64,000 nt of DNA, taken from the IMG/VR virus record IMGVR_UViG_3300043424_000354, positions 44,632-108,631 of that record; one strand, 5' to 3'. The notes beneath the pieces are model-generated. The model did not search any database. It was given only the letters and a program-made list of their open reading frames with translations, and was not told where the DNA came from. Origin of the DNA: a virus. Below, in pieces: positions 1-39,248 of this stretch. Numbering within the stretch: position 1 is the stretch's first letter; each line of letters starts with the position of its first letter. Made by a program: the position numbers and the translations under genes.

Positions 1-1096
1 CAATGTAGTTACCGCTGAAATTGCTAGAATAAGTTCCTGCATAGTTACCAGCATAGTTCCTAGAACCTGCGTAATACCCTACGTAGTTGCCAGAGAAATT
101 GCCAGCATAGTTGCCTGCGTAATTTCTAGAACCCGCGTATGATCCAGTATAATTTCCTGTGAAATTGCCTGTATACGTTCCTGAATAGTTTGCCGGACCT
201 ACATAACCGCCACTGAAGTTGTTGGCATAATTACCAGAATATGCGCCAGCATAATTACCAGAGTAATTTCTAGAACCAGCATAGGTTCCTGCGTAGTTAC
301 CTGCGTAGTTACCTGCGTAGTTTTGCGGAGTTACTTGTTCACGAGTATCTGCAAACTCATCACCCATTTGCACCCAAGTGCCGCCAGATGGAGCAGTGGA
401 TTGAATCTTATATGTCCCAACGCCGCTATCGATAATTCTATTGCGGAAGTTTGGTAGCATCTGAAGAATCTCAGAAGATGACATTTCTTTGACATCTTTC
501 GTATTGATCAGTTTCAGTGGTTTTAGATTGGCATCCGAAAGAGAAGTAGCAGCAGTTTTCTGCCAAAGATATGTTGTGGTATTCCCACCATTAGCAACAT
601 CGGTTAGCGTGTAACGAGCAACCCACGTCCCGCCTGACGGAGCAGAACCTTGTAGGCGATATTGACCCGCAGTATACGAAGTCTCCGAAACCATCGCATT
701 AATTGCATAGTCCAGAATTTCGGTATCGATTTGACCATCAGTCATTTCGCGGATACCCGAATCATATTTCAGCGGACGATTTGTAATACTTTCTGATGCT
801 GCAGCAGAGACCTGCTTTGCGTAGTATGTAACTGTGTCTAATGCACCAGTAGCAGGGTGAGTGCCTGTTGCTTCTTGGCGATCAGTGTCAGCAAAAGTTC
901 CGATTGCAGTTCCTGCGCCACTATTGTTTGTGGTGATATTTAGTTCGCCAGTGCCAGTACCGTCGGAGTTAGCACCGAAAGAAACTGTCAATGTTTGGGC
1001 GATGTAGTTCTTGACTTCATCAGTAGTCATCTCCTGCAAACCTTGCCAGTTTGCAGAAGAAACAGGTGTTGCCGAGGATTTGTTTCTCAATACCAT
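1..1096 (-). CDS. Fibre-like virion protein with [YF]xGx repeats, paralog of 1100..3091 (runs off the window; absent from the ORF track)
   Basis: Manual translation from ATG 1096: MVLRNKSSATPVSSANWQGLQEMTTDEVKNYIAQ...GTHPATG...AGQYRLQGSAPSGGTWV...LPNFRNRIID...FADTREQVTPQNYAGNYAGNYAG..., colinear with the upstream gene; no stop before position 1. Confidence 0.9.
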   Translation of the reverse strand, partial: MVLRNKSSATPVSSANWQGLQEMTTDEVKNYIAQTLTVSFGANSDGTGTGELNITTNNSGAGTAIGTFADTDRQEATGTHPATGALDTVTYYAKQVSAAASESITNRPLKYDSGIREMTDGQIDTEILDYAINAMVSETSYTAGQYRLQGSAPSGGTWVARYTLTDVANGGNTTTYLWQKTAATSLSDANLKPLKLINTKDVKEMSSSEILQMLPNFRNRIIDSGVGTYKIQSTAPSGGTWVQMGDEFADTREQVTPQNYAGNYAGNYAGTYAGSRNYSGNYAGAYSGNYANNFSGGYVGPANYSGTYTGNFTGNYTGSYAGSRNYAGNYAGNFSGNYVGYYAGSRNYAGNYAGTYSSNFSGNYI

Positions 1097-1099
1097 AGT

Positions 1100-3091
1100 T
1101 TACGCAGTTCTAATCCACAACTTAATTGTTGAAACTGTATCTTTAGTCGCTTGAATCGTCGCACCACTATAATTACCAGTAAAGGTATTTATATACGAAC
1201 CAGAATAGTTTCCGGTGTAAGTTCCGCCGCCTGCATAGTTACCACTGAAGTTGCCCGTGTAATTTGATGTTGTAGAGAAGGTTCCTTGATAGTTGCCAGA
1301 GTAGTTTGCTGGTCCTGTGAAGTACCCCGTATAGAAACCTCCTGGTCCAGAGAAATATCCAGTGTATGGAGTTGGAGGAACAAATCCGTTATAGTTTCCA
1401 GTGTATGATGTACCGTATGCTGGACCTTGGAACGAAACTGTTCCGGAATAATTACCAGCAAAGTTACTTACGTATGTTCCGTTATATGTTCTTGAACCTG
1501 AATAATATGCTATACCAGTATATCCTGGACCTGTGCCAGCATAGTTGCCAGAATAGGTTCTGGATCCCGAGTAGGTTGCTGGTCCTACATAATTGCCAGT
1601 AAAAGTGCCTCCTGGCGAAGAGAAGGTGTTGGTATAAAATACAGGCAAGTATCCTATACCTGGAATAAACTGCGTTTCCTGATATGAACCAGAATATGCT
1701 GGACCAGGACCAGTAAAGAATCCAGGACTATAGTAAACTGTCTGCAAACCACTATATGGATCAGGTATCTGATTTGAGAAATAATCAGTGTAATAATTAG
1801 TCCCCGAGTAATACCCTGTATAATAATCTGCCATAAAGGCACCAGTATATCCTGGTCCAGGAGCACCACTATAATTACCTGTATATGTGGCAGTTCCTGC
1901 GTAACTACCAGCATAGTTTCTCGAACCAGAGTAATATGCTACACCAGAATATGTTGCTCCTGTTCCGGCATAATTACCAGCATAGTTTCTTGAACCAGAG
2001 TAGTAAGATGCGTAATTACCAGTATATGATGGACCTGGACCACTAAAGAACGGCGAATAGAATGGGGATCCAGTATAAGTGCCGGAATAACTGATCAGTG
2101 GACCTAGTGGTGCAGTATATGTTGTTCCAGTATAACTTACTGCATTAGTAAAGGTGTTTGAATACCCAGCAGTTCCAGCATAATTACCAGAAAAGTTACC
2201 TGTGTAATTTGAGGTTGTTGAAAAAGTGTTTGAATATGTTCCGCTGTAATTTACTACGCCACCATAGTTGCCGCTGTAGTTACCAGTGAAATTTCCGCTG
2301 TAGTTACCAGCATAATTCTGCGGAGAAACTTGCTCGCGAGTATCGGAAAACTCATTGCCCATCTGAACCCAAGTTCCACCAGAAGGTGCTGATGATTGTA
2401 ATTTATAGGTTCCGATTCCGGTATCGATAATTCTATTACGGAAGTTCGGTAGCAGTTGTTCGATTTCAGATTCTGTCATCTGCTTGCAGTTGCTGCCGTT
2501 GTAACTGCGCAACGGAGTATAATCTGAATTTGGAGAAGATGATGCTACTGTTTTTTGCCAGAGATATGTAACAGTGTTTCCGCCTTGCGCAGTATCTGTT
2601 AGCGTATATCTGGAAACCCAAGTTCCACCCGACGGAGCAGATGCCTGTAGTTTATATTGTCCAGCAGTATAACTAGATTCGGCGACCATCGCCTCAATGC
2701 AGAGATCCAGCACGCCATCAATATCACCATCACTCATCTCTTCAAGATGAGAATCCCATGCGAGTGGTCTGTTGGTGATGCTTTCTGATGCCGCAGCAGT
2801 TACCTGCTTTGCGTAGTACGTGGTAGTTGTAGTATTTCCAGTCGCGGGATGCGTGCCAATCGATTCAGTTCTATTGGTATCAACAAAAGATCCGATTGAA
2901 GTCCCAGAACCCGAATTGTCTGTTGTGATGTTTATTTCAGCAGTACCTGTACCGTCAGTTACTGCTGCGAATTTTTCAGTGATAACATTGGCAATATAAT
3001 TTTTTACCTCTGAATCGGTCATAGTCTGCAAACCGCTGATGTTTGCAGAAGTGATTGGGGACCCTGATGCTTTGACCTTTAGAGGATTCAT
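1100..3091 (-). CDS. Fibre-like virion protein: N-terminal internally repeated domain plus ~390-aa [YF]xGx (NYSG/NYAG/NFTG) repeat insert
   Basis: 663-aa ORF in the tail operon downstream of the baseplate genes; extreme Y/G/S/T/N composition. Confidence 0.75.
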   Translation of the reverse strand: MNPLKVKASGSPITSANISGLQTMTDSEVKNYIANVITEKFAAVTDGTGTAEINITTDNSGSGTSIGSFVDTNRTESIGTHPATGNTTTTTYYAKQVTAAASESITNRPLAWDSHLEEMSDGDIDGVLDLCIEAMVAESSYTAGQYKLQASAPSGGTWVSRYTLTDTAQGGNTVTYLWQKTVASSSPNSDYTPLRSYNGSNCKQMTESEIEQLLPNFRNRIIDTGIGTYKLQSSAPSGGTWVQMGNEFSDTREQVSPQNYAGNYSGNFTGNYSGNYGGVVNYSGTYSNTFSTTSNYTGNFSGNYAGTAGYSNTFTNAVSYTGTTYTAPLGPLISYSGTYTGSPFYSPFFSGPGPSYTGNYASYYSGSRNYAGNYAGTGATYSGVAYYSGSRNYAGSYAGTATYTGNYSGAPGPGYTGAFMADYYTGYYSGTNYYTDYFSNQIPDPYSGLQTVYYSPGFFTGPGPAYSGSYQETQFIPGIGYLPVFYTNTFSSPGGTFTGNYVGPATYSGSRTYSGNYAGTGPGYTGIAYYSGSRTYNGTYVSNFAGNYSGTVSFQGPAYGTSYTGNYNGFVPPTPYTGYFSGPGGFYTGYFTGPANYSGNYQGTFSTTSNYTGNFSGNYAGGGTYTGNYSGSYINTFTGNYSGATIQATKDTVSTIKLWIRTA

Positions 3092-3093
3092 TA

Positions 3094-3576
3094 TTAATTC
3101 AGCCTGTTACCGCTTGAGTCATAAACAATGAGATTTGTTACGCGATACCAGTCTTGAGTATCCTGAGCAACCAATTCTACCGATGAGTATGGTGCCAAAT
3201 TCACACCAGCGTTGGTTGTTCCACCATCAATAACGTCTGAAGTATTTGGGTATACAACAATGGTAACTGCAGTTGTGTTAACAACTTTGATATTAATACC
3301 CGCAGCAGCAGTAGGTAACTTAACACCCTGCGCCGCACTGGCAGTTGTTACAATATTGACTGTCTTTGTTAGCGCAGTGGCATCACCTTGCGTAGATCCT
3401 GCTGCGGAAACTGTTCCTGACACCGAAGTGGTAAGAGTGCCTGTTAATGTCAAATCTGCAAAAGAAGGACTGTCACCAGATTCATACTTGTCTGTATTCA
3501 AATTGCTGAAGTTGTCATCAACCTCAGTATTTGTCAGCGGAGTCCCCTTTACAGATCTAAGGGTAAGAGTGCTCAT
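3094..3576 (-). CDS. Small tail-fibre/adaptor structural protein
   Basis: N-terminal TLRSVKGTPLTNTEVDDNFSNLN motif typical of fibre N-termini in T4-like phages; coupled to its neighbours. Confidence 0.6.
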   Translation of the reverse strand: MSTLTLRSVKGTPLTNTEVDDNFSNLNTDKYESGDSPSFADLTLTGTLTTSVSGTVSAAGSTQGDATALTKTVNIVTTASAAQGVKLPTAAAGINIKVVNTTAVTIVVYPNTSDVIDGGTTNAGVNLAPYSSVELVAQDTQDWYRVTNLIVYDSSGNRLN

Positions 3577-3582
3577 GCTTTT

Positions 3583-3801
3583 TTATCCTTGTTTCTGTAG
3601 AATTTGTGTTAGTAAGTTTTTAATCTCAATCATCTCATTCTTAAGATTATTTATATCGTCGCCATACGATTCAATCTGCATCATGTGTTTTTTACGCGCC
3701 TTATATGCTGCTAAGGCAGGGAGGTCATTCGAAAGTATTGCCTTCGAATGACTGTCCCGTTCGTATTTGTTTGTGTCTGTTAGTTTGATTTTAGTTGACA
3801 T
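3583..3801 (-). CDS. Small coiled-coil protein that follows VrlC-like genes in T4-like phages
   Basis: MSTKIK...YERDSHSKAILSND...INNLKNEMIEIKNLL; ATG at 3801 just after the DUF4815 stop. Confidence 0.7.
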   Translation of the reverse strand: MSTKIKLTDTNKYERDSHSKAILSNDLPALAAYKARKKHMMQIESYGDDINNLKNEMIEIKNLLTQILQKQG

Positions 3802-3802
3802 A

Positions 3803-6800
3803 TTATACCTGCAACGCAATCGCTCTTAGTTCTCTTACACGAGGAACAACAGAACTGTTTGACGAAAGAGGAACAACCTTTACAGCGAACGTCTTATATC
3901 CAGTGAAGTTTGCGCTTCCGACAGCATACTCAAAAACGTCGCTTCCGTTTTTATTCGCAGCAGGAATTGTATATTCATATTCTACAAATCCTGACTTCGA
4001 AGCACTATCAAGTGGCGAATTGGTTAGTTCCAATTGAATCCAGTCAAGATCATCAAAGTTTGAGGCATCAGTTGCATTCTGGAATTTACCGTAAACTGCA
4101 ACATCACATTCAGACGGAATCTTGTTGCTCAGATATACCTTCAAATCTTCTGCATCTTGACCATCATCAAGCACAACTCGGCGAGAGATATACTTCGAAG
4201 CAGCAGAACCATTGTTACCATCTTCATTCGTAGTAAGATTGTTTACATCATTCGCAACTGCGATAATTGAACACTTTCTAGTATCAATAACTGGCGAAAC
4301 AGTAGATGTTTGCGTTACCATACCTGCTCTTACTGTTAGGGATTTATCTCCACCAAGATCTGCTTGCTCGTTCGAATAGGAATATACCTGTGCTTCGTAC
4401 GTCAATTCATGTTCTTGACCAAAGTTGAAACCTTCATGGACCGTTCCACCAGCACCAGCACCTGTTGCAGTTGGTGCAACTGACCAAGAAACTGTCGCAG
4501 GAGTATGATCAATAAACCCGATATTGGTTTCTAGAACGTTCAATTGCTTATTCTCGACTTCAGTGATTTCAGCGTATGTAGTTCCATTACCGACGATGTC
4601 TGTAGCAGTAAATGAACCCTTAGTGATCAACAACTTACCGACATTATAGAGAGTATCGTATTGCTTTACGAAACCTGTATTGAGAACAACGGTAACTACA
4701 GCGCTGGATCCACCGCCACTAGAGATAGTGAGAGTTGGGTTGCTTGTATATCCTGCTCCTGGATCTGTAACGACTACATCAGTAACCAGACCGCTCGCGA
4801 TTGTTACATTAACTGTAGCATTGGTTGTTGCTCCACCCCCCGAGAGGGTATGTGCAATAGTTCCGTCTGTATAACCACTTCCTGGGTTTGAGATCGTGAA
4901 CGTGAAACCGTGAACCGTATCACCTGCCGCAAAATTACCATCGGAGAACGAATCAAATTTCAAATAATCAACGTTCATGTTGCGCATCACAACTGACCCA
5001 ACAGTATTAATTTCGAAGTCGGCACGACGAAGAGTAAACTTAATATCTTCTTTCTGCCATGCAGTCCACGATCTGTTGTTTGCAGAGGTGAATAGAACGC
5101 CGACATGCGGTTGTTCTGAAATTCTGTTCTGTGTTCCCAGTTGGTTTTCGCCAAGTTCCGAAACCCAGATATTGTAATCTGGATTGTTACCAGCAGGAAG
5201 CAGAACAAAGCAATATTCAGTATTGTTTTGCAGATATACTGGTGAAGGGAAGGTGAAGGTTGTTGCTGTTGCAGCAGTTTCGCTTACCGACACAGCAGAA
5301 GGATTCAATGTAACTTCGCCGAACGGAATTACCTTGTTACCAGGATAACCATTTACAACTTCGCGAATCTGTAGAGTGATTGGCGCTGTCGATGACTTCG
5401 TTCTGAAATAGATGTCAAGATTTGTTACATAGCAACCAAAAGGCATACCTTCAACATAGAAAGTTTGAGCGATTGGATCTCTACCACGCGCAGGTTGCGC
5501 ACACGGATTGATCGTGTTACACCCTGCAGGAATTGTTATTGGACTGCTGCTGCCGCCGAATGTGACATCAAAACCACCCAATTCTAAATCAATTGTTGTC
5601 GCTTCCCAACATGTTTCAACTGGTGCGCATGGATCTGGTGTTGGTGTATCCACAACCACGACTTCGCGTGGAGGATCTACTACAGGATCTTCTGTAATAA
5701 CTGGGGGATCTTGAACGATTTGCGTTACATTAGTATTGTTGATTACAGTGGTGTTAGTTACTGTGTTGTCAATGTTAGTAACGTTGTTAACAGTTGTGAA
5801 CGTATTGTTAACTGTTCTTTCGATTACACCAACTTGCCTATCAGCAATTCTATTTTCAGTTCGTTCAGTTTCGAATATCGATCTAGAATCTGATGTTGAT
5901 GACAATTCGACATTAGCAACTCTGGTCGAAACAACGGTATCTTGAACGTTTTGCGAAAGACCGTTTGCTGACCAAGTCTTAGTCGAAGCAGTGGTAATAA
6001 ACGCATCGCGATTGAATTGGTCGTCGCAGAGACGGAAATTCTTATCGCCTGTTCTGAACGTTGCTGCTGGAATTCTAAATTGACCGACGCAAACACCCTG
6101 TGCATTAGTGATCAGTGGATCTCCATAATCACCATCAGCATATGTTGAATATCTAGCAGGGTCGTTTGGTTTCTGGTCTGTCGCTGGGTCAAAGTCTAGT
6201 GGACGACAATGTTCAGCAACTGCAACACCATCAAAGAATGGATAAACTCTGGTATTTGGTTTTAGTCTCTGCGCAATAAACGTAACGATTACAGAGCGCA
6301 TGAACGGAATGATCGAAGTATTCGTTACTCGAGCGCCAGTTCTTTGTGTTTGTGTTTCAGGCGTAACCGATAGCGACACACCCTGACGAGTTTGTCTTTG
6401 TTGGATTGTTGTTGTAACAACTTGTGTTTGCTGCTGTAATAGCAGGTCGCCGCTAAGAGTAGTGTTACCTGCAACAGTTTCTGAAGACTGACCAACTGCA
6501 GTTCTTCCAGTTACGACATCCTGCCAGTCACCCCATTGAGTTCCCCATGCATCTGATAGATTTTCCCAAGCATCATAATTGCCGTCGAAGTTTACGCTAA
6601 CATCTGGTAGTTGTGCGGTATCCGTCCAGTTATCGACTGGTGGATCTAGTTCCATATTTCCGATGTAATTGAATAGTAACTCACCGACGCAATTTCTTGG
6701 TTTGGAGGCAAATGCGTTCTTAGTCATCTCTACGTTGGTGTACGGTAGAGTGATCAGATCACCTGTCTTATAGACATTGGTTGAACTATCCGAATCGTAA

Positions 6801-17209: not shown

Positions 17210-17217
17210 TATTTATA
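17210..17217 (-). promoter_or_regulatory. T4-type late promoter for the gp25-gp6-gp7-gp8 operon
   Basis: TATAAATA 5 nt before the gp25 ATG. Confidence 0.82.
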
Positions 17218-17219
17218 TG

Positions 17220-20200
17220 TTACCACGGGATAAACCTACCTTTACTTAAGAATATTGTTTGACTTCCGCTTTGACGGCAAGTTCCGTTTGCGCTACCGCT
17301 TCTCTTTTGCCCGTTCCATAGAACATATCCAATATGCAACCATGCAGTAGATCCGTTCGCAGTCTCTAGCAGAATTTGGTCGCAGCGTGGTAGAGATGTT
17401 GCTACGAAGTTTGCGATCTCAACCATCTTTTGTTTGTTTGAAGCATACTGCGGCCACTGCAAGTCAACTGCAGCATATCTGTGCGCCGACATGGTGTCGT
17501 GCCTAAATCCAGAGTTAATTCTGAACCCAGGATACTTTTCGCGCAGAGGTTCGAGAATGTTAAGAGCAAGGCATCTATAGTTCTGGATAATTTCCCACTT
17601 ATTATTTTTGCCCTTTGGATAGGCAATGAACTGCGATAGACTTCTAGTTGGGAAGAAGTCTTTCAATCTGTAATTATCTGACAGAACAATATCACCGTTA
17701 ATCTTGTTTCCGCCAAGTGCTGGCAGTGGTTGTTTAGTCTTGTAGTATTTGTCGCACCCAGCAATAGCAGGAGGGACTGTGCCGAAGTCGCCGACTTGTT
17801 CCCCACCAGTGCCCGAACCTGAATCTGGTCCAAGTGGATTGGATGGATCATTTGGACTTACGCAATCCGCGGAACCACTATCTGGCGAATCTGGAACGTC
17901 GTTATCAGTAGTATCCGACGATCCTTGGTTACCACCACCTACACCACCAGCAGACCCACCAACATATTGCGACTTGCCTGCGACGGACTTACTGACTGGT
18001 TTTTCGACAGTCTTGGTATTTGACAACGGAGCAGCAACAGCACAAACTGCCTCTGCTGCTGCAACAGGAGCAGTAACAGTTGCGGTTGTATTACCCTTGA
18101 TGTTAGTGGTATCATCAGGCGAGTTATGAGTTCCCTTGAGGTTTGTTGTTCCTGCATTCAGGGTTGTGATATTTGCAGTTGTAACATCAATTGTGGCGGT
18201 GTCAATCGGCGAAGAAGTAACAAGAGGTGCCTTGAGACTGATATTACCAACACCCTCAACATTTACTCCTGCGCCCGATTTAATTTCAGTCGCTGCGCCA
18301 GACTTAGACTTAATACTTGCATCAGTACAGGTGTTCATATCGCCCGTCGAGTGATTGTAGTATGCACCAGCAGATTTAATGTGGGTATCTGTCTTCGAAG
18401 TGAGGTTAAGTCCTCCATCTGTTGTCAAATTAAATTTACCAGCAGCGTCTGTAGTAAAGTTACCCTTCGCGTCGATGTCAATGTCACCAACATTCTCGAG
18501 TGACATCAATCCGCCATTTCTTGCGTAGATACCTTCACCAACAGACAGCGATAAACGGCCGCCGATATTGACATCAATGTCATTGTGAATATCCATCGAA
18601 ACTCGACCATGCATAGTCAAGTTTGTATCGCTCATAATAATAACATTGCAATTACCTGCAACGTGAACGTTAGCAACACCCTCGATTAAGATATATCCGT
18701 CCTTGTCCAGAATGGTGTAACCATCACCAACAATCTTAGTGACCTTAGTTCCGTCTGGTCCAATCTCATCAAATGTCCCTGAACGGTGAGCAAAGTTTAA
18801 TCGTTCTGAACCAGGAGTGTCATCGATTTCAATAGCGTGTCCTGCCTCAGATCCAAACACCTTATTATATGGATACTGTGCGTTATAAGGTGATTCTGGT
18901 TGCGCCCAAGTTGCACCATTTCTACCAGCAGTTGGAACTTCGCGTTTTCTATTTGCGTTTCTTGCTGCAGGAGATGCACCTGCGCTAAGAGTTTCTCTGT
19001 TACCAGCAGAAGTTTTTGGACTCGCACCAACTTGTGGCGAGTTTACCCCTGTTGCCAGTGGGTTGGTATCAGGTTTATTTACAGAAGATCTTAACGGATA
19101 TACTTTATTAGGATCCTTGAATCCTTTTGAATCATCTTGCATTGATGCTGGAACTACGTCAGCATTTGATGGTTGATTATTTGCTCTAAAGGTTTCAGTA
19201 GAGTTTTCTTTGTTTACTTCTTCTTCAGATGCAGCATTCTTAACCTGCGTCGATGGGGGATCGGTAACATCAGTTTCTGCTGGTTTCGTTTCTAGAACAA
19301 CCTTTTCTTGAGTCTTTTCTTTAGTTCTCGTAGTTCCATCTGCGCTGACAGTTTCAACTGTTGTGGTTTTAGTTCCGTCAGGATTCACAGCAACAGTAGT
19401 TGTTATGCTGTTACCATCAGTATCATAAATCGTTGTGGCAACGGGATCGACAATATTAAGTTGTTTTTTAATTGGCGCAATGTCAGTTTCAAATGAAGAA
19501 ACAATTTGTTGTTTTGCAGACTGCAGTATTTGATATTTTTCTTGCGGTCCAATAATTTTCGCTGCTTGAATTGCTTTGTCTAATTGCGCCGATAAACTGT
19601 CAATAGAAACTGGCATAGAAACAGCAATTTCTATACCAGCATACAGAATCCTACCAGAAATATTTGTTCCAACTGCCTTATATTCTATGGTAAGTTTGTC
19701 GATTGTATTCTCAACCAACGTAGCACCACCTTCTACTGGTGCTACCTCAGGGACATCTGGTTTTGCTGTGCTTACCTCTAGAGGTGTTTCTGCAATAGAA
19801 TTCCAACCAATATCATACCAATACTTGGAAGTAATACCATTGGTATCTTTCTTGATAATTCCCTTAGAATATGCTGCTGCAGTATCATAATTTACGCACA
19901 GCGATACAGAAAGCAATCCAGTAATTACATTAGGATCAGTGCTGTCAGAAATAATTCTGGCAGTATAAAGAAGATTGTAAATAAACTTCAAATAACTATA
20001 AGCAATTTGATCCTGATAATATCCCGAAAGCAGAATATCTGCGCCAGTAGTAATTTGATTGTTTATTGAAACTCCTTCGAGTTTATTTGTTATGAAGTAA
20101 TACTGAGCATTATTTTTCGCTTCAATTTTTGCTTCGGCAAAATCAATCAGAGGATTCTGTTCTTTGGCATACTCGAAATATGATTTTCTGTTTTCGAGTT

Positions 20201-20483
20201 TTTCCGGACCCTCTGGATGATCAACTAATATCTTGTTGATGTATTCTCGTGCGCTACTTCCCAACCAACTAGCGTCGATTAACTGGTTGATGGTGAAACG
20301 ATAGGCACCATATTCACCTTTGTCGTGAACCTTTGAGAATACGTCCTGTGTGCCAGCAACAGGATATTGTTTGGTAATTGCATCTTGACATGCCTTCAAC
20401 AGCGAAGTAATGTTATCTGCTGTTAGTGGACCGATACCTTCTTCAAATGGACCTGAATTTGTTTCATAAGTTATATTTGCCAT
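17220..20483 (-). CDS. gp5: gp5 C-terminal half: degenerate lysozyme-like N-domain, beta-helix spike and C-terminal peptidase M15-type domain
   Basis: PESPYNAQYPYNKV..SEAGH.IEIDDTPGSERL..AHRSGTF.EI is the gp5 junction motif, followed by VxG-type octapeptide repeats; INSGFR..SAH...AVDL...WLHIGY at the C-terminus. Confidence 0.8.
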   Translation of the reverse strand: MANITYETNSGPFEEGIGPLTADNITSLLKACQDAITKQYPVAGTQDVFSKVHDKGEYGAYRFTINQLIDASWLGSSAREYINKILVDHPEGPEKLENRKSYFEYAKEQNPLIDFAEAKIEAKNNAQYYFITNKLEGVSINNQITTGADILLSGYYQDQIAYSYLKFIYNLLYTARIISDSTDPNVITGLLSVSLCVNYDTAAAYSKGIIKKDTNGITSKYWYDIGWNSIAETPLEVSTAKPDVPEVAPVEGGATLVENTIDKLTIEYKAVGTNISGRILYAGIEIAVSMPVSIDSLSAQLDKAIQAAKIIGPQEKYQILQSAKQQIVSSFETDIAPIKKQLNIVDPVATTIYDTDGNSITTTVAVNPDGTKTTTVETVSADGTTRTKEKTQEKVVLETKPAETDVTDPPSTQVKNAASEEEVNKENSTETFRANNQPSNADVVPASMQDDSKGFKDPNKVYPLRSSVNKPDTNPLATGVNSPQVGASPKTSAGNRETLSAGASPAARNANRKREVPTAGRNGATWAQPESPYNAQYPYNKVFGSEAGHAIEIDDTPGSERLNFAHRSGTFDEIGPDGTKVTKIVGDGYTILDKDGYILIEGVANVHVAGNCNVIIMSDTNLTMHGRVSMDIHNDIDVNIGGRLSLSVGEGIYARNGGLMSLENVGDIDIDAKGNFTTDAAGKFNLTTDGGLNLTSKTDTHIKSAGAYYNHSTGDMNTCTDASIKSKSGAATEIKSGAGVNVEGVGNISLKAPLVTSSPIDTATIDVTTANITTLNAGTTNLKGTHNSPDDTTNIKGNTTATVTAPVAAAEAVCAVAAPLSNTKTVEKPVSKSVAGKSQYVGGSAGGVGGGNQGSSDTTDNDVPDSPDSGSADCVSPNDPSNPLGPDSGSGTGGEQVGDFGTVPPAIAGCDKYYKTKQPLPALGGNKINGDIVLSDNYRLKDFFPTRSLSQFIAYPKGKNNKWEIIQNYRCLALNILEPLREKYPGFRINSGFRHDTMSAHRYAAVDLQWPQYASNKQKMVEIANFVATSLPRCDQILLETANGSTAWLHIGYVLWNGQKRSGSANGTCRQSGSQTIFLSKGRFIPW

Positions 20484-20494
20484 GTTAGATCCTC

Positions 20495-21433
20495 TTACGC
20501 CAGTCCGTATTTCTTTTTATAATGAGCAAATTTGTTTATTCTATCGGAAAGTCCATTCACCCCACCATTAACTGCTCTGGTAACTTTTTCAATATCACCC
20601 CATTGATTTCTTGGTCCAATATTTCTTGCGTTACCTTTAGCAAAAAACCAAACAACCGCAGCAGCGCCTGCCTCTTTCAATTGTAATAGTTCTGGAGTGC
20701 TGATTAGATCTTTACTGATATAATTTCCGCAAGCTCTGTAGTTTGCACGCCCTGTAATTTGAATGTATCCACGACCCATGTATTTCTTACCATCTCCTGG
20801 TTGGGTGTTGCCCAGATCTCTTCTACCTTCGTATCCGCTCTGCGCTTTGGTTGGACCCCAAATTTCTTTAAAGAATCTAAAGTTTCCGCTTTCATGCGCA
20901 CATTGCGCCATGATTGCTGCCTTTGCCATTTTACCCCAATTCTTCAAATTCTTTGGACCATTCGCCTCAAGATATTGCTCAAGATAACTTTCATAATCTT
21001 TTGCATTACCAGAAGGTTCAACGAAATCGCCCTTTACTCCACCTGTTCCTGAACCTACTGCATTATCGTTCGCGCCACCAGATCCGTCTTCAGGAGTACA
21101 ATCATTTGACGCCAATCCACCAGGAATAGAACCTACTGTTCCAAAGAACATCGGGTGCTGACCATTCTCGCCATCTGCAAAAAACCCAACAACCCAAGAA
21201 CCTTCTACTGCGCCAGTCGGCGACCAACCAACGCCAGATGAACCTGCTGAATTTGCTGGCATTACTGGCATCGCCCAAGGTAGATTTTCAGTTGGAAGTA
21301 ATTCTAGGTCTGCCGTATGATACCCAAGGATTCTAACTTTACATCTTCCTAATCTCAATGGATCATTTCTGTCTTCAACTGCTCCGAACCACCAATAAAA
21401 ATTTGGGTTATTATTCGAAATAAGATTGTCCAT
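20495..21433 (-). CDS. gp5: gp5 N-terminal OB-fold fused to a GH19 (chitinase-like) lysozyme
   Basis: WWFGAVEDRNDPLRLGRCKVRILGYHT..LPWA..GSWVVGFFADG; AQCAHESG, GRGYIQITGRANY, VNGGVNGLSDR; true ATG at 21433. Confidence 0.88.
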   Translation of the reverse strand: MDNLISNNNPNFYWWFGAVEDRNDPLRLGRCKVRILGYHTADLELLPTENLPWAMPVMPANSAGSSGVGWSPTGAVEGSWVVGFFADGENGQHPMFFGTVGSIPGGLASNDCTPEDGSGGANDNAVGSGTGGVKGDFVEPSGNAKDYESYLEQYLEANGPKNLKNWGKMAKAAIMAQCAHESGNFRFFKEIWGPTKAQSGYEGRRDLGNTQPGDGKKYMGRGYIQITGRANYRACGNYISKDLISTPELLQLKEAGAAAVVWFFAKGNARNIGPRNQWGDIEKVTRAVNGGVNGLSDRINKFAHYKKKYGLA

Positions 21434-21434
21434 A

Positions 21435-22919
21435 TTATTGCGTCGCTCCTGCATCTTCTGTAACATCATATAACGGGAATGGATATGAGTCTTTTGCGAT
21501 TTCAACGAACATCTTATGCGATAATGGAGTGATTTGATGGTGAATCGCAGTGATCATATACAATCCAGAAATCAGCAGATCCCAAATAAATGGTTCCGCA
21601 GTGTTTTCTGGTTTTTCCCCTACTGATGGATAATAAAATTTAATAAGTTTACCGATTTCAATATCAGTTCTTCCTGGAACAGTCAATTGAATTCTCATTG
21701 TCGTTAGATCCAGTAAAGAACTAGTTCTTTGCGACACGAATGTTTCAGGATGGAGATCTACGGAATCTTCGGTAGAATCAAGCACTCCTGGATTTACTGT
21801 TGAAACGAACATCTTGCCTTCGCCAGATCTCATAACATTTATTGGGAACAGCATGTTATATTTTTTATCTTTATCTAAGGAAAACTTGGAATCCTTAGAA
21901 ATCTTATAATCTTCCATATGATTAATTTCGTTGAAATTAAAACCATGATCATATGTGTACGCCGTGTATTCCTTCTTCACCATATCAAAACTAAAGACTG
22001 TGCTGGCAAAGTGACCGAGATCTTGACTTTGAAGAATATCTAAGTTAGTTAAGAATTGAATTGCCTCAACAGTAGAGTATCCCTTGCTAAGTGCAGAGGT
22101 TGTTTGTAGATTATCTAGATTGGGGTGGTAGACGTAATCCGCAAAAATATCATTTGCTTCTAGTTGAGAAACAATTAAACTTTCAATAGAGGTGAAATAA
22201 AACGCTTTAGTTGATTCAAAAAACAAGAATGTTGGCGACTTTAAGTTTGCACCAAGAGATCTTTTTGCCAACCAATTCATACAATGGATTGGACTCCACA
22301 TAGGAGGAACAAATGTAATATACGACTGGTGCGGAGTATCCGAAATAAACAGTGGAGTATTTTTTTCGCTCTTTTCTTGGAAAGAAGCAGGATCTTTTGT
22401 CGTAACAATTCTTGGGAGAGAAAGATAATCGGAGAAAATCTTATCTGCAAGTTCGTCTGTAGTTCCAGTAAACTTCTCACACACTCTTAGAATGTTATCG
22501 GCGGACGCTTCAACAGAACAGAAAAACAGTTGATAATATTGTTCTCTATCGTTGTTTAATTTTCTATCTTTGATTGCATAAACTGCAAATGACTTATGGA
22601 TTTTATTGAAAAAATCATCTTGCGCTGGAACTTCCTGAAATGGAGTTCTAACATTAATCGTAAGGATTTCATCTCCAAGGATCGGGGTTCTGCCAATCAA
22701 ATTGGTGGCATCTCTGATGACTACGCTGCCATGTAGAGTCGGGGAAAAGATATCCTCGTATAAATTCAATTCAACAAAGAATGGTTTAAGATCCAGCGCA
22801 ACTCCAGTAACCGTGTTAATGAATATTTCATCAATGATCACATCTCCTGGTTTTTGCAAACCACCAGATGCCAGATCTTTGTTGTTGGATGCTGCTTTAT
22901 CAGTCGGGGTATCTACCAT
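21435..22919 (-). CDS. Baseplate hub protein (gp27-like)
   Basis: Between gp53 and gp5; LYEDIFSP.LHG, FLFFES..AFYFTSIESL, VPGRTDIEIG, SGLYMITAIHH. Confidence 0.7.
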   Translation of the reverse strand: MVDTPTDKAASNNKDLASGGLQKPGDVIIDEIFINTVTGVALDLKPFFVELNLYEDIFSPTLHGSVVIRDATNLIGRTPILGDEILTINVRTPFQEVPAQDDFFNKIHKSFAVYAIKDRKLNNDREQYYQLFFCSVEASADNILRVCEKFTGTTDELADKIFSDYLSLPRIVTTKDPASFQEKSEKNTPLFISDTPHQSYITFVPPMWSPIHCMNWLAKRSLGANLKSPTFLFFESTKAFYFTSIESLIVSQLEANDIFADYVYHPNLDNLQTTSALSKGYSTVEAIQFLTNLDILQSQDLGHFASTVFSFDMVKKEYTAYTYDHGFNFNEINHMEDYKISKDSKFSLDKDKKYNMLFPINVMRSGEGKMFVSTVNPGVLDSTEDSVDLHPETFVSQRTSSLLDLTTMRIQLTVPGRTDIEIGKLIKFYYPSVGEKPENTAEPFIWDLLISGLYMITAIHHQITPLSHKMFVEIAKDSYPFPLYDVTEDAGATQ

Positions 22920-24782: not shown

Positions 24783-24790
24783 TATTTATA
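24783..24790 (-). promoter_or_regulatory. T4-type late promoter for gp48
   Basis: TATAAATA on the minus strand. Confidence 0.78.
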
Positions 24791-27464: not shown

Positions 27465-27611
27465 ATGAATTTTTACAAAGTAAATTTCATTTTGATGCAC
27501 GAGCATAAATATAGTCTAACCGAATTAGAAAATATGATACCGTGGGAAAGGGAAGTATACATCGGGATGTTAATTACACATCTCAAAAAGAAAGCAGAGA
27601 ACCAGGATTAA
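27465..27611 (+). CDS. gp51: Baseplate hub assembly catalyst gp51-like (possibly reached by -1 frameshift from gp26; absent from the ORF track)
   Basis: NFILMHEHKYSLTELENMIPWEREVYIGML; open -1 frame extends back to TTTTTTC at 27432. Confidence 0.85.
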   Translation: MNFYKVNFILMHEHKYSLTELENMIPWEREVYIGMLITHLKKKAENQD

Positions 27612-29785
27612 TGGAAAAACAACAATCTAATAAGGGTATTGGTAAAGAAAGTCAACTTTCTAGGATTGCTGCTGCAGTAAATCCCAGTTCCAATACTGCT
27701 GCAAATCCTGACTCCACTAAATCGATGATTCAAACATTCGTCAAACATTTTGACAGTGTTGCTTTAACAATGGTCAACGAAATAGATGATGATCAAAGAG
27801 ATCTAGTTAAAAACATGGTTGCAGAAATTACTAAACTGCAAACAAAGAATATTCAAGAATTTGAAAAAGCAATTGCTAAAATTGTTAGCATGTCAGAAAA
27901 AATGCTTGAAAGCAACAATCCCAACCTACAACAAATCGGGCAGGGGATGCAAGATCAAGCAAAACAAGAACTGTTTAAGGCAAAGGGTATAACTCTATCG
28001 GGCGAACACGACACGTTCAGAAATCGCCTTAAACGAGAAATGTCTGGTGGAAATTTTGATCCAACCAAACCAAAAGAAAAAACTTCCGGTCTCGGTAAGA
28101 TCAAAGGTTACTGGGCAGATACTAAAAATGAATTCAAAAAGGGTGCGAGAGCTGCTGTTCAAGAGGGCAGTTTTGCAGATAGAGTATTCACAAGCGATGA
28201 AGACAAACGTAACCGCGAATTACAAAAACTAGAAAATTCTACAGGGGAAGATAAATCCGAATCCCTCGCAGATATGTTCAAAAAAACAATTGAACAACTG
28301 CTTGATAAATCTAAAGAAAATAAGGGTGGAACAGAATCCGCAAGTGATCAACAAGAAGATGCTGCTGGTATTTCTAAAGATGCCATGATAGAAGCAGCAC
28401 AAAAGACTGCTGAAACAAGCGGGATGATAGAAAAAAATACCAAGGATACTGCAGATACTCTACAGAAAATCCTAGGTGAAGTAAAGCAAATCTCAGAAAA
28501 ACTGAACACCATGGGATCTATTGGTGGCGATGGTGGAGGTGGTGGATTCGATCCAACGGATTTACTGGATTTTGGCGGAGGCGGATCTAAGAAACCAAGA
28601 AGAGGTATGAGACTTCGCGGCCGAGGTAGACTCCTAAGAATGCGAGCAGGCAGAGCACTGCGAGGCGCAAGGTCGTTTGGTGGTCGTGTATTGGGTGGAG
28701 CAAGATCTCTTGGTGGTAGAGCATTGGGAGCAGCAAGAACTGCTGGTTCTACTCTCTTTAATGTTGGTAGAGCAGCAGTTGGCGGAATCAGTGGAACTGC
28801 AGTGCTGGCAGCAGGTGCAGCGGCAGCAGCAACAGGCGCTATTGTTTATGGCGCAGATAAATTTATTAAATCTACGAACATGGGAGCAAGAAAGAAGCAG
28901 GAAGAGGGAACTGCAAAGTTCGGACTTACTGGCAATAATCTTGATGGATTTTCAATTAACGGAAAACCTGCTGGCAAATATAAAGATCTTCCCGAGTATT
29001 ATAAAAACGTTGCGGATGGTTATGGTGCCAACAGTAGAGGCGGCGCTGCTGAACGAGCAAGACAATACGTCGAAACCCACAATCCAGATGGCAGTAAAAA
29101 GGTTGAGAAAAAACCTGCTGCTGTTGAAAAGGAAAAGAAAAAAACTGATGCCAAGGTAACTCCAAAGACGCCAGCAAAACAAGTAACAACTCCACCACCA
29201 GTTGAGGCGGATGAAATCGTAGTTACTGCTTCAAAGAAAAAGAAAGCAGAAGTCGAGAAACCAAAGCAAGAAAAATCTGCCGCGACTTCTACGGTCAAAG
29301 AAGCAACAAAAGCAAGCGACAAAACTGCTGATTTAACTGCAGTTGACAAAAGCATCAAGGGTAAGGTTGCTGAAATTGATCCGAAAGGAAAATGGGCAAA
29401 ACTCAAAGATGGTAAAATCGTAGATCCTGATTTCCCTAATGATGCCGATTCAAACTATACTGCTCAACAAGCATATAAGTTGAGTCAAAAGTCTGCCAAA
29501 GTTGCACCAAACCAAAATAATTCTGGCGAAACATTAAACGAAACCAGTAAGAAAGCAACAGCAAAAACTGAGACTGGTAGAAACGCAGATGGTGCGCTGA
29601 TTGAAGCAGGAACTGCTGCCACGAAGGACAAAGTTAATGTAAATGTTCCTCCGCCAACAGTGATCAATCAGGGCGGCGGACAAGGAAATTCTGGTCCAAA
29701 CATCACTGCTCCAGGTGGAGTAAGAAATGTCAGAGCAGACGAACCAAGTTGGTTGCGGTTCCAGCAAAAAAGAGCAGGGGGATAA
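27611..29785 (+). CDS. Tape-measure-like protein (gp29 position)
   Basis: TAATG coupling to gp51; helical N-half, Gly/Arg/Ala-rich hydrophobic middle, Lys-rich C-half. Confidence 0.6.
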   Translation: MEKQQSNKGIGKESQLSRIAAAVNPSSNTAANPDSTKSMIQTFVKHFDSVALTMVNEIDDDQRDLVKNMVAEITKLQTKNIQEFEKAIAKIVSMSEKMLESNNPNLQQIGQGMQDQAKQELFKAKGITLSGEHDTFRNRLKREMSGGNFDPTKPKEKTSGLGKIKGYWADTKNEFKKGARAAVQEGSFADRVFTSDEDKRNRELQKLENSTGEDKSESLADMFKKTIEQLLDKSKENKGGTESASDQQEDAAGISKDAMIEAAQKTAETSGMIEKNTKDTADTLQKILGEVKQISEKLNTMGSIGGDGGGGGFDPTDLLDFGGGGSKKPRRGMRLRGRGRLLRMRAGRALRGARSFGGRVLGGARSLGGRALGAARTAGSTLFNVGRAAVGGISGTAVLAAGAAAAATGAIVYGADKFIKSTNMGARKKQEEGTAKFGLTGNNLDGFSINGKPAGKYKDLPEYYKNVADGYGANSRGGAAERARQYVETHNPDGSKKVEKKPAAVEKEKKKTDAKVTPKTPAKQVTTPPPVEADEIVVTASKKKKAEVEKPKQEKSAATSTVKEATKASDKTADLTAVDKSIKGKVAEIDPKGKWAKLKDGKIVDPDFPNDADSNYTAQQAYKLSQKSAKVAPNQNNSGETLNETSKKATAKTETGRNADGALIEAGTAATKDKVNVNVPPPTVINQGGGQGNSGPNITAPGGVRNVRADEPSWLRFQQKRAGG

Positions 29786-37030: not shown

Positions 37031-38355
37031 TTATATAACCATTCAAGTTCTGGAAAGGTTTTCATGAAATCTGTATTTCGAACATTATCAAGTTTGGAAT
37101 ATTCTTCCATATGTTTTAAGTAATCTTCGCCGTCATAATCAAAGAAATCCATGTCTTTTTGATCAATTTTTCGCATTTCTTTGATTTTTTCTATTGAATT
37201 AATAATACTTTGTTTTTTATATGGATTAGAAGCATTCGGTATGACAGTATCCAAATACCATGTTTCAAACTCCTCTAACGACCGAATAACATATTCCCAG
37301 TGTTGCTGTGGAATATTCATTACATTCAAATGCTTTGGTGTTCGTATTAGATTGGTAAACAAGAAATATTCAAAGGTTGGATGATATTTGTTACTTTCCT
37401 GATATATACCTATAGAAAGAAATTCTTGAACCATTTCCTTTAATCTGTGCATATTTAAGGCACTCAATACAGGTGCAATACACAATTTATGCGTAGGATT
37501 ATGTTCAGTGTTTATTTCCTCGAAGCAATCATGAATTTTTTTGAGATTCTGTGAAACACTATCCCATTTTGCGGGCCACCGTATATAATTAAATCTATCC
37601 CCGACTTCATCGATACTCGCCATTATTAACACTGATTTAAACTGTTTCCAGTACTCTAGAACATCTTTATCCTTATTCTTCAGCGTGCTACAATTTGTAG
37701 AATATACAAGATCAATTTCTTTTGCTCGATCTGCCTCTATAAGTTTATCAAGAGTATACCAGTGATATTTTGACAACATCGGTTCGCCTCCAGCAAAATA
37801 AATGTTATCAACGCTGTCCAAATTATCATCAATTAATTGATATGCTATCGTATCGTCAGTTGGTTCGATAAATTTCGGAGAAGTTGGAGGTATATTTAAT
37901 TTTTGCATGAGATCATACCAACTAGAACTCAACGCATGACCGCAAGTAATGCATGCTTGGTTACAATGATTGGAGAATCTAAAATCAATATACTTCAATT
38001 TGTTCGTAGTCATTGATCCATCTTCAAGTAACTGACTCATGTAATAATCATAATTTGATTCGTATTGGGTGTTGCGCCACTTTCTTGAACTGGTATCGGA
38101 AAACTTTTCAGTGTCATAACAGAAAGAACATATTGGATTCTTTTCACCTGCTATCATTCTACGTCGAAATTCTTTATACTCTTCGCCATTCCAAATTTCT
38201 TCCCACGAAGAAACCATGTTTATATTTCCAAGTGGCGGTTTTGTCATGTCCCCCACGCAACAAGGCATAACATTTCCGTTAGGTGCCACGTATGTATGGA
38301 GCAATCCCAACATACAAAAAGAAGGATTTTCTTTGAGATTATAATCTTTAGTCAT
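37027..38355 (-). CDS. Radical SAM protein with N-terminal SPASM/twitch-like domain
   Basis: C...GNVMPCC...CSFC; NHCNQACITC; AGGEP. Confidence 0.9.
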   Translation of the reverse strand: MTKDYNLKENPSFCMLGLLHTYVAPNGNVMPCCVGDMTKPPLGNINMVSSWEEIWNGEEYKEFRRRMIAGEKNPICSFCYDTEKFSDTSSRKWRNTQYESNYDYYMSQLLEDGSMTTNKLKYIDFRFSNHCNQACITCGHALSSSWYDLMQKLNIPPTSPKFIEPTDDTIAYQLIDDNLDSVDNIYFAGGEPMLSKYHWYTLDKLIEADRAKEIDLVYSTNCSTLKNKDKDVLEYWKQFKSVLIMASIDEVGDRFNYIRWPAKWDSVSQNLKKIHDCFEEINTEHNPTHKLCIAPVLSALNMHRLKEMVQEFLSIGIYQESNKYHPTFEYFLFTNLIRTPKHLNVMNIPQQHWEYVIRSLEEFETWYLDTVIPNASNPYKKQSIINSIEKIKEMRKIDQKDMDFFDYDGEDYLKHMEEYSKLDNVRNTDFMKTFPELEWLYK

Positions 38356-38452
38356 AGATAAATGGATCCAATTTTTTCAATTTCTCTAATCTCTTCTTTA
38401 ATTTTCTTTTGCGAATTAATGCACGAAATAATTCTACTATCTTGTTAACCAT
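38348..38452 (-). CDS. 34-aa basic peptide ending in DPFIYD (absent from the ORF track)
   Basis: MVNKIVELFRALIRKRKLKKRLEKLKKLDPFIYD; overlaps both neighbours and fills the gap. Confidence 0.7.
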   Translation of the reverse strand: MVNKIVELFRALIRKRKLKKRLEKLKKLDPFIYD

Positions 38453-39248
38453 CTATAACTCCCGTCGTGATTAATTCATCAAACATATGATTGGCGAATT
38501 TCTTGTGAACATCGACAACTGGATGCCCCCATCCATGCGTATATTTCTCTATCTCCTCCACGACCACGAAATTAGAAAGAGAAACTTCCGGAGACAACAA
38601 ATTATCAAACTTTACATTGTCCAACCAAGGTAATTTACTTTTATACCCGCTCAATACTAATCGAATTGATTGTAACGATTGAACTGTCATGACAATTTTC
38701 AACCTATTACCCAAAGATTTTGACAGGTAGTCTAGATATTTTGCATGCTTGATGTATTCCCACATCAAATTACAATCTGTTGCCCACGTGTCTAGTAATG
38801 CATCGTTCAACTTGGCACTGTGCGTCCATCGAGAATCTCCCACGAATTTGGTAATCATTATTCCGGAATCGGAAACCCAAGAAAATCTTACTGGACAAGT
38901 TAAACCAACAAAAATAAGATCAGTTTCTACGATTTCATTGGAAACAATATCGCGTTCAATGTTGTAGATAAACTCGTTTATACTAGTTCCCATTTTAGCG
39001 CGATTTGAACACGAGACCCCCAACCGCTCTGCGATATAATTAGGCCAAGCAAGTTGTGATGACAATAATGTGCAACGAATTCGCGTTTCCTCATTCCCAT
39101 AAACACCCTCGACGCAATGTATACCATGCTTGCGTTTGTAAGCATCAATTTCTTCATGCGGTTTGTTCAAGATAATAGCATCTGCCAGTTCTTGCCCAGC
39201 AGTGTAACTGCAACCATATGCAACTACTCTATTAATATTGAGTGCCAT
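38445..39248 (-). CDS. SGNH/GDSL-like hydrolase or acyltransferase
   Basis: AYGCSYTAG, WP..IA, NRA..G, C-terminal GHP...H. Confidence 0.7.
   Translation of the reverse strand: MALNINRVVAYGCSYTAGQELADAIILNKPHEEIDAYKRKHGIHCVEGVYGNEETRIRCTLLSSQLAWPNYIAERLGVSCSNRAKMGTSINEFIYNIERDIVSNEIVETDLIFVGLTCPVRFSWVSDSGIMITKFVGDSRWTHSAKLNDALLDTWATDCNLMWEYIKHAKYLDYLSKSLGNRLKIVMTVQSLQSIRLVLSGYKSKLPWLDNVKFDNLLSPEVSLSNFVVVEEIEKYTHGWGHPVVDVHKKFANHMFDELITTGVIDG

Follow-up and report, generated by a model that had tools for sequence, protein, structure and literature searches.

The needle of T4 gp37, reportedly described by Bartual et al. in 2010, is said to be formed by a chain that runs out and back and carries its receptor-contacting tip in mid-sequence. 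Tip residues lie at about 929-949 of the 1026 residues of gp37, and the needle carries seven irons (PMC6957217). The gp38 adhesins of T2/T6/S16-type phages are portrayed in two published accounts as Gly-rich, modular and hypervariable monomers that combine a conserved attachment part with a variable distal part (PMC3157838, PMC12032242). The MABP domain of MPEG1 binds lipid through one "extraordinarily elongated" prism hairpin (PMC6753088), and the beta-prism of Vibrio cholerae Bap1 holds a nested loop of 57 residues made of aromatic repeats, the central WFFG of which enters lipid as the loop forms a hairpin; this loop confers adhesion and is gained or lost as a unit (PMC12965690). Here we describe a gene from an uncultured virus, located in a stretch of 64,000 nucleotides (positions 44,632 to 108,631 of IMG/VR record IMGVR_UViG_3300043424_000354; hereafter the window), whose 663-residue product, designated P0001, carries in one hairpin of its predicted beta-prism core an insert of nearly 400 residues rich in Tyr and Gly. 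The window makes up the right-hand 64 kb of that record, which has 108,631 bp and is estimated to be 66% complete.

We consider it probable that P0001 is a structural protein, expressed late by an uncultured T4-like myovirus, with a prism base and a lengthened third-repeat hairpin that forms a thin adhesion fibre. Phage fibres, and beta-prisms in which an extended hairpin is adhesive, are already known as kinds; what is new here is the two-arm ribbon of Tyr and Gly, its scale, and its upkeep through paired insertions and deletions (indels). Within the library searched, we found no described family, structure or paper that covers this protein.

A core of three repeats with one hairpin greatly lengthened

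A preliminary description, drawn from the letters of the stretch and its open reading frames (ORFs) alone, had proposed that the ORF at 1100-3091 on the minus strand contains two copies of one unit, and that in the second copy a four-residue AQGG turn is replaced by an insert of about 390 residues. The insert is as described, comprising 387 residues (about residues 259-645) at the position of the four-residue turn of the sister repeat. The units quoted correspond to residues 144-181 and to residues 227-250 plus 650-662, and they are indeed homologous, with 14 of 17 residues identical between 144-160 and 227-243 in an ungapped comparison; the count, however, is three repeats and not two. Profile-profile alignment with hhalign, using 65 homologues, related repeat 1 to repeat 2 (98.3% probability, E = 1.9e-14), repeat 2 to repeat 3 (99.6%, E = 6e-25) and repeat 1 to repeat 3 (98.3%, E = 1.6e-14). 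Their hairpin turns measure about 16, 4 (AQGG) and about 390 residues, respectively.

Monomer models were made with AlphaFold2 for P0001 (117-row alignment) and for a short-insert homologue of 287 residues, P0043 (65 rows). The P0043 model (mean predicted local distance difference test, pLDDT, 96.0; predicted template modelling score 0.90) comprises three consecutive beta-beta-alpha-beta-beta-beta units, the last of which closes with a long, confident hairpin (strands 241-257 and 260-285). In the P0001 model pLDDT exceeds 95 for residues 1-268 and 640-663, and the C-terminal strand (residues 633-661, pLDDT 96-98) is back in the core, pairing with residues 248-268; this return of the KLWIRT strand is the outcome that the preliminary description had looked for in such a model. 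The strand is kept at the C-terminus in 118 of 150 family sequences examined.

When each model was aligned exhaustively with 48,161 PDB representatives, the same five entries, all MABP beta-prisms, ranked first: 2qp2 (Plu-MACPF C-terminal domain), 8b6v (Mpf2Ba1 C-terminal domain), 3tow (MVB12B MABP domain), 6sb1 (perforin-2 P2) and 6u23 (MPEG1). The top five Z scores were 7.5, 7.3, 6.5, 5.8 and 3.8 with one model and 6.8, 6.8, 6.0, 5.4 and 4.2 with the other; the superpositions cover 111-122 residues at a root-mean-square deviation of 3.6-5.4, and the next row had Z of 2.2-2.4. In the models, as in the MABP prism, three structurally equivalent repeats are arranged around a pseudo-threefold axis. 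The core is thus modelled as a pseudo-threefold beta-prism of about 280 residues, with three homologous repeats that each end in a beta-hairpin, an assignment that we hold to be probable as part of the reading given above. Because the scores are middling, we term it an MABP-like beta-prism and make no claim of membership in that family.

Residues 1-258 and 646-663 are of ordinary composition. The 380 residues from 266 to 645 include 74 Gly, 65 Tyr, 54 Thr, 47 Ser, 33 Asn and 24 each of Phe, Ala and Pro, with four Arg, no His and no Lys; the only acidic residues of the insert and its only Met fall in residues 415-490, its central tip region. All but one of the 56 [YF]xG sites in P0001 lie at or beyond residue 260. 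Aromatic residues are most commonly spaced by four (34 times) and next by six (17 times), and Gly likewise by four (26 times) and six (11 times), against five occurrences of a spacing of three. Choline/glucan-binding "YG" cell-wall repeats were tried as a candidate and rejected: their units are of about 20 residues, the period here is four to six, and Pfam gave no match.

The tip lies at the midpoint of the insert

To compare arms we used as anchors two invariant tryptophans, one in the G-T-W before the insert and the other in the L-W-x-R after it. In the P0043 model the two lie opposite one another across the hairpin, and their positions add to the sum (234 + 283) that is set by the turn at residues 258-259. 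Among 109 family representatives, non-redundant at 50% identity, a [YF][YF][GSA]|G turn falls exactly at the midpoint between the tryptophans in 16 (0.86 expected; Poisson P = 2e-15) and no more than one residue from it in 23 (2.6 expected), the tryptophan separations in these midpoint cases ranging from 56 to 304. Orthologues of the tandem paralogue, a second gene of the family adjoining that of P0001, have a turn of F-F-G-G-F type at the midpoint over separations of 184 to 596. In orthologues of the P0001 type (separations 398 to 712) the landmark F-x-A-[DE]-x-Y-x-G stands 30.5-37 residues ahead of the midpoint and a second, P-x-[YF]-F-x-G-P, 0-6.5 residues past it, and the arms grow together, from 160 to 306 residues outbound and from 226 to 375 on the return. 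A third type of tip, P-[LI]-A-P-x-E-P-G-[DE], is at most 8.5 residues from the midpoint in 20 of 23 sequences.

The nesting that the preliminary description had seen within the P0001 insert is also there: residues 286-308 match 601-623 (19 of 23 identical), the YSGSR blocks at 361-378 and 384-401 match residues 507-522, and the irregular Pro-rich segments (approximately 441-483) lie between the nested blocks. All six Arg of the tandem paralogue in the same genome are mirrored with one constant offset. When residues were paired across the arms in the register given by the GG turn (5,130 pairs from 49 proteins), three classes dominated: Gly opposite a small residue (32%), an aromatic opposite a small residue (19%) and an aromatic opposite Asn (16%), with aromatic:aromatic pairs at only 5%. 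The arms are therefore in periodic phase along their whole length. Read from sequence in this way, each face of the ribbon would set the tyrosines of one strand above small residues of the other.

Arms gain and lose residues in mirrored pairs

Indels also bear on arm pairing. P0153, the core of which is 96.5% identical to that of P0001, is missing exactly 10 residues in each of two places, 288-297 and 600-609, which are mirror positions about residue 450. Comparisons with exactly two indels provide a clean test of pairing: among 43 distinct comparisons of this kind between alignable relatives, the two were equal in length to within one residue in 28, and 22 of those 28 pairs were mirrored to within 10 residues. 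Examples are 13 residues at distances of 144 and 145 from the start and end, respectively, 20 at 119 and 119, and 70 at 44 and 49; in a nested case, indels of 66 and 32 residues on one arm are answered by 32 and 66 on the other. A crude correlation of net indel length between arms reached only r = 0.46, a weakness that we attribute to misaligned distant pairs.

The distal part also changes wholesale. P0152 has a core 98.8% identical to that of P0001 and a near-identical stem, whereas in the middle of its insert identity falls to only 47.7%, the alignment has 108 gap columns, and the tip is of a different type; this is a cassette swap. Orthologue lengths run from 465 to 1102 residues; where cores are 83-87% identical, they still vary between 621 and 958. 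An unchanging base joined to a distal part that changes quickly is what usually marks phage proteins that contact the host.

Blocks containing G-S-R return at intervals of 22-23 residues along the arms, with mirrored counterparts across them, in the complete paralogue (L002:712-2295) and orthologues as well as in P0001 (residues 368/391 and 511/534). The commonest large indel units, of 20-24 residues, are similar to this spacing. Together they suggest a super-repeat, possibly one turn of a twisted ribbon.

Five independent lines thus support a chain that runs out and back in antiparallel arms to a variable tip: the return of the C-terminal strand, the tip at the midpoint, the mirrored and equal indels, the mirrored Arg, and the periodic phase. 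The preliminary description had suggested such a fold-back, and had proposed comparing insert length and tip across homologues; the pairing of arms and the variability of the tip emerge from just that comparison, while beta conformation over the full length, and the receptor binding ascribed to the tip, we infer. It is comparison among relatives, rather than the AlphaFold model, that strongly supports paired arms.

Alternative readings of the insert

Several observations weigh against the structure proposed. The P0001 model has pLDDT of 31-47 and no confident structure over residues 273-630, and is uninformative on most of the insert. The similarity of the core to MABP prisms is middling (Z < 8), and a Foldseek search of PDB and BFVD gave no match (best E 0.2 and 0.085, TM score about 0.1). 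Mirrored blocks in P0001 add to 902-909 and not exactly to 900, which makes small bulges in its arms likely; a simple mirror scan of Pro and Arg in P0001 alone was ambiguous, with two competing peaks at sums of 903 and 925, and was replaced by the landmark and indel analyses. In three very long members (L090, L100 and L018; 1004-1045 residues) the P-[LI]-A-P-x-E-P-G-[DE] tip lies 23 to 218 residues off the midpoint. This may in part be an artefact of anchor detection, which in L090 has probably misplaced the first tryptophan; otherwise these members may have a more complex or branched architecture. Searches with tblastn of 50,697 phage records, using the whole protein and the core, revealed no member of the family. 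Finally, a free ribbon tens of nanometres long may be unstable by itself, and we know of no solved precedent for one.

The low pLDDT, together with a composition that is about 72% G/Y/T/S/N and resembles in kind the [G/S]Y[G/S] prion-like domains, would suit an intrinsically disordered, FUS-like low-complexity "sticky" loop, the halves of which pair with no persistence. Nothing would make a disordered loop, or a repeat running one way, hold its tip exactly at the midpoint while length varies tenfold, gain and lose equal, mirrored segments, or stay in periodic phase, and like sequence in short-insert members is modelled as a confident hairpin; we regard this explanation as very improbable. A prion-like domain lacking a fixed register was considered separately and rejected on the exact-midpoint tip and the paired, mirrored indels.

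As to how the paired arms are packed, one possibility, which we put forward tentatively, is that the insert of each monomer stands free as a ribbon of two beta-strands. No longer beta-hairpin would be known: each arm would have some 200 residues here and as many as about 470 in relatives (roughly 70-150 nm). In place of a hydrophobic core, tyrosines positioned above small residues of the opposite strand would stabilize it, and its length would be tuned stepwise by paired indels, much like compensatory changes in an RNA stem. Equal arms and mirrored indels fit any structure with paired arms, and hairpins of several copies might instead pack into a multi-stranded needle or tube (compare the six strands of T4 gp37), or the ribbon might coil into a double-stranded beta-helix or solenoid, producing a shorter, thicker fibre or knob. 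Pro-rich breaks that are roughly mirrored (residues 328-333 with 571-576, and 410-413 with 491-495) could then be corners, the G-S-R spacing might mark the super-repeat, and the want of precedent for a lone ribbon of 50-150 nm would pose no difficulty. Set against such packing, the base is modelled as a monomeric pseudo-threefold prism with one extended hairpin and has no trimerization or N-terminal attachment domain; tyrosines are equal on both ribbon faces in the deduced register, and neither face looks like a core of small residues; and the His ladder of gp37 is missing. We judge packing or coiling of this sort rather unlikely.

Extent of the family

Searching 1.84 billion representatives by phmmer, with the core as query, defined 382 clusters (50% identity) with lengths of 278 to 1364 residues. 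Nearly all full-length members end in ...L-W-x-R-T-A, and their inserts are all rich in Tyr, Gly and Thr. Annotation gives little: source names of family members in the protein collections are all "hypothetical" or evidently spurious; neither Pfam (at E <= 0.01) nor PHROG matched P0001, its isolated core or short homologues; neither phmmer of P0001 nor hmmsearch of the family profile retrieved any PDB sequence (for the profile, none at E <= 1); and the ESM Atlas returned only unnamed viral clusters, with named leads scoring below 0.8. At the nucleotide level, megablast of 12 kb of the window likewise gave no match.

Comparison with described systems

MABP domains, including MPEG1 P2, share the pseudo-threefold beta-prism with P0001, and are the best and only structural matches of both models. 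They differ in having no sequence similarity and no Pfam match to the phage protein, the best Z is only 6-7.5, and each of the phage repeats includes a helix. The hairpin in the phage protein is longer by roughly one to two orders of magnitude, with up to about 470 residues per arm composed of Tyr/Gly tetrapeptides; the context of MPEG1 is a pore-forming toxin and that of P0001 a phage baseplate operon. Bap1 likewise has an aromatic pseudo-repeat nested in a beta-prism, and its WFFG core compares with the [YF][YF]GG[FY] at the midpoint of family members: a repeat loop inside a prism hairpin, with a central aromatic-Gly core, is present in both. The repeats of Bap1, however, are basic (W-b-p-K-p-n-m-Y) and total 57 residues, whereas the phage arms are almost uncharged and run to hundreds; no homology is shown, and the tip of P0001 itself is Pro-rich and complex rather than of the simple FFGGF type. 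A thin adhesive whisker is plausible given the precedents of the MPEG1 hairpin and the Bap1 loop.

Both T4 gp37 and P0001 belong to, or are placed with, T4-type phage fibre parts, and a tip in mid-sequence of an out-and-back chain is common to the two. The preliminary description had called the ribbon unlike the trimeric fibres of T4; that contrast was overstated, since the gp37 needle likewise goes out and back. Differences lie elsewhere: gp37 is an intertwined homotrimer with iron bound by His and a needle of about 15 nm, whereas the base of P0001 would be a pseudo-trimeric monomer, its repeats are of Tyr and Gly, its arms would be longer by a factor of 4 to 10, and its sequence offers no His for an iron ladder between residues 266 and 645.

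The Gly-rich motifs of gp38 form polyglycine-II helices, which need a three-residue periodicity. P0001 has gp38-like traits in being a Gly-rich, modular, hypervariable adhesin candidate whose attachment part is conserved and whose distal part varies; it differs in its Gly spacing of four and six, in arms that are paired strands, and in showing no sequence or Pfam similarity. A polyglycine-II adhesin of gp38 type was ruled out by the counts of Gly spacing given above and by the lack of a Pfam or PHROG match.

A proposed adhesion fibre

In the structure that we propose, the hairpin of repeat 3 would be lengthened by about 390 residues of [YF]-x-G-x units. The chain would leave the prism past W241, run some 200 residues out to the irregular, Pro-rich tip centred on residue 450, come back over about 200 residues in register with the outbound arm, and re-enter the prism as the final K-L-W-I-R-T-A strand. 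At approximately 0.33 nm per residue, a fully extended two-stranded ribbon would measure about 70 nm in P0001 and about 47 nm in the tandem paralogue, and would span from about 6 to about 160 nm over the family. Length and tip would evolve rapidly, through paired indels in the arms and exchange of cassettes, while the base stays constant. Within the virion, of which P0001 is presumably a part, the prism may dock at the periphery of the baseplate, perhaps via the conserved neighbour p160 or the DUF4815 protein described below. The ribbon could then act as a thin accessory fibre or whisker that makes early, multivalent, low-affinity contact with the host envelope, binding through its tyrosine ladder and its aromatic or Pro-rich tip.

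Genomic context

The features of P0001 and its surroundings are collected in Table 1. Upstream on the same strand, PHROG matches identify the T4 baseplate set, comprising a tube cap (gp48/54-type), a gp53-like protein, the gp5 hub/lysozyme, gp25, gp6, gp7 and gp8, followed by a tail-collar-type protein and then a 2000-residue DUF4815 / phrog_358 protein. Across 132 IMG/VR loci the order is collar, gp8-like, DUF4815, p78, p160, one or two copies of the Tyr/Gly gene, and p151. This conserved position in a late baseplate operon places the gene in a T4-type baseplate/fibre module.

Table 1. Positions of the P0001 gene, its parts and adjacent features in the window
Feature	Position	Strand	Remarks	Basis
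P0001 gene, 663-aa Tyr/Gly fold-back protein	1100..3091	(-)	single ORF; stop codon 1100-1102	
Core repeat 1, aa 1-106	2774..3091	(-)	hairpin loop of ~16 aa with conserved G-x-H-P	AF2 (AlphaFold2) secondary structure; hhalign
Core repeat 2, aa 107-190	2522..2773	(-)	hairpin turn is the 4-residue AQGG	AF2; hhalign
Core repeat 3, first part, aa 191-258	2318..2521	(-)	ends past the conserved G-T-W (W241)	
Insert, outbound arm, aa 259-414	1850..2317	(-)	Tyr/Gly tetra- and hexapeptide units; first ~10-20 residues a confident modelled strand	
Outbound half of mirrored indel pair, 10 residues, aa 288-297	2201..2230	(-)	missing from P0153	
Tip region, aa 415-490	1622..1849	(-)	irregular, Pro-rich; W241-W659 midpoint at aa 450	
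Insert, return arm, aa 491-645	1157..1621	(-)		
Return half of mirrored indel pair, 10 residues, aa 600-609	1265..1294	(-)	missing from P0153	
Last strand, aa 646-663, ending K-L-W-I-R-T-A	1103..1156	(-)	completes core repeat 3	
Tandem paralogue	2..1096	(-)	cut by window edge; 3-nt gap after P0001	
p160, conserved 160-aa protein	3094..3576	(-)	directly upstream of P0001, 2-nt gap; with the family in 124/132 loci	
p78, conserved small protein	3583..3819	(-)	between DUF4815 giant protein and p160	
TATAAATA, T4-type late-promoter consensus	3648..3655	(-)	72 nt upstream of p160 start codon	
DUF4815 / phrog_358 giant protein, 2000 aa	3803..9805	(-)	always upstream in the module	

The tandem paralogue is whole at L002:712-2295, where it encodes 527 residues with an insert of 251 and the C-terminal strand of P0001; its core is 68% identical to that of P0001. 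The p160 protein, translationally coupled to P0001, has a highly conserved N-terminal segment with invariant K-G-x-P-L-T, E, D, N and L; it has no significant match in Pfam, PHROG or a PDB profile search, and it could be an adaptor between baseplate and beta-prism. Directly after the last Tyr/Gly gene stands p151, a charged protein of about 150 residues (L057:13622-14077, minus strand; an equivalent in 122 of 132 loci), which has no Pfam, PHROG or PDB match. Its position is that of tail-fibre assembly chaperones.

The motif TATAAATA, the T4 late-promoter consensus, occurs nine times in the window, every time on the minus strand, which is the coding strand here; 3.95 matches were expected on both strands. 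Other sites precede the baseplate operon (24783-24790) and gp25 (17210-17217), and one lies inside the 3' end of P0001 (1186-1193), 90 nt before the start of the paralogue.

It is conceivable that P0001 is no virion protein at all but an assembly factor, a length ruler for the giant DUF4815 protein, or a factor acting in the infected cell. Pfam and PHROG scans recognized no fibre-attachment domain in it, and it is always encoded along with the small conserved p78, p160 and p151. Cassette swapping and rapid change of length beside a 99%-identical core are nevertheless typical of parts that contact the host, not of internal scaffolds; the gene stands distally in a baseplate/fibre operon, at its end, and a late-promoter motif is present there; and two diverged tandem copies are maintained. 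We find a role outside the virion quite improbable, and retain the adhesion fibre as the preferred interpretation.

The gp6 homologue shares only 33-36% identity with its counterparts in cyanophages, pelagimyophages and Melnitz phages, which places the phage on a deep branch of the aquatic T4-like group. Its gp5-type baseplate hub is apparently split into two genes (17220-21505, minus strand), one encoding a 336-residue protein that matches the N-terminal part of phrog_430 plus an endolysin domain, and the other a 1087-residue protein that matches the middle of phrog_430. An ORF of 747 residues at 27542-29785 on the plus strand has no PHROG match; it falls in the only part of the window where AT skew (0.27) and GC skew (0.12) are strongly positive.

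A glycosyltransferase-like island downstream

An island of glycosyltransferase-like genes (L057:8079-13632; G000:C1 about 38078-43631) follows p151 and the two fibre genes on their downstream side, immediately to the left of the window in the same virus record; it is present in 72-73 of the 73 related loci with enough flank. It encodes four paralogous proteins (231-276 residues) that share the motif K-W-G-x-K-Y at the N-terminus and an invariant D-x-D. One of these paralogues matches phrog_1962, "glycosyltransferase" (E = 1.8e-13), and has a sub-threshold match to Pfam GT8; a 231-residue protein has a sub-threshold match to GT2. A protein of 228 residues has only weak matches, the best being to a spermine/spermidine synthase-like domain, and one of 225 residues has conserved His residues and no library match. 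PDB profile searches with the 225-residue protein and the glycosyltransferase-like paralogues returned nothing significant. The island is a possible fibre-decoration system.

The same neighbours raise the idea that the repeat is a scaffold for sugars, the enzymes of the island decorating a ribbon rich in Ser, Thr and Asn so that a glycan coat, rather than the tyrosines, gives adhesion, shielding or solubility. The near-universal presence of the island, the D-x-D paralogues with their phrog_1962 and sub-threshold Pfam matches, and an excess of N-x-S/T sites (14 and 11 in the inserts, against 8.7 and 6.4 when shuffled) would agree with it. That excess, though, amounts to only about two standard deviations, and Ala is as frequent as Ser or Thr at the same position; adjacency by itself is weak where gene order is conserved throughout the lineage; the island proteins gave no Pfam match above threshold and no PDB match in profile searches; and a sugar scaffold leaves the strict equality of the arms unexplained. 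We think it unlikely that glycans, and not the tyrosines, provide the function of the insert.

Implications

These analyses define a large, unannotated family, comprising 382 clusters from uncultured T4-like phages, with a confidently modelled new architecture. It presents a rare case in which tertiary contacts of a protein can be read straight from the covariation of indels. Were the free two-stranded ribbon real, it would extend the limits of beta-hairpin length more than tenfold and constitute a new class of protein fibre, which could serve as a template for nanofibres of programmable length. The neighbouring island suggests that a system for decorating the fibre may accompany it. A phage that varies the length and tip of a fibre on a constant base bears on the evolution of host range among abundant aquatic phages, and on the design of protein fibres.

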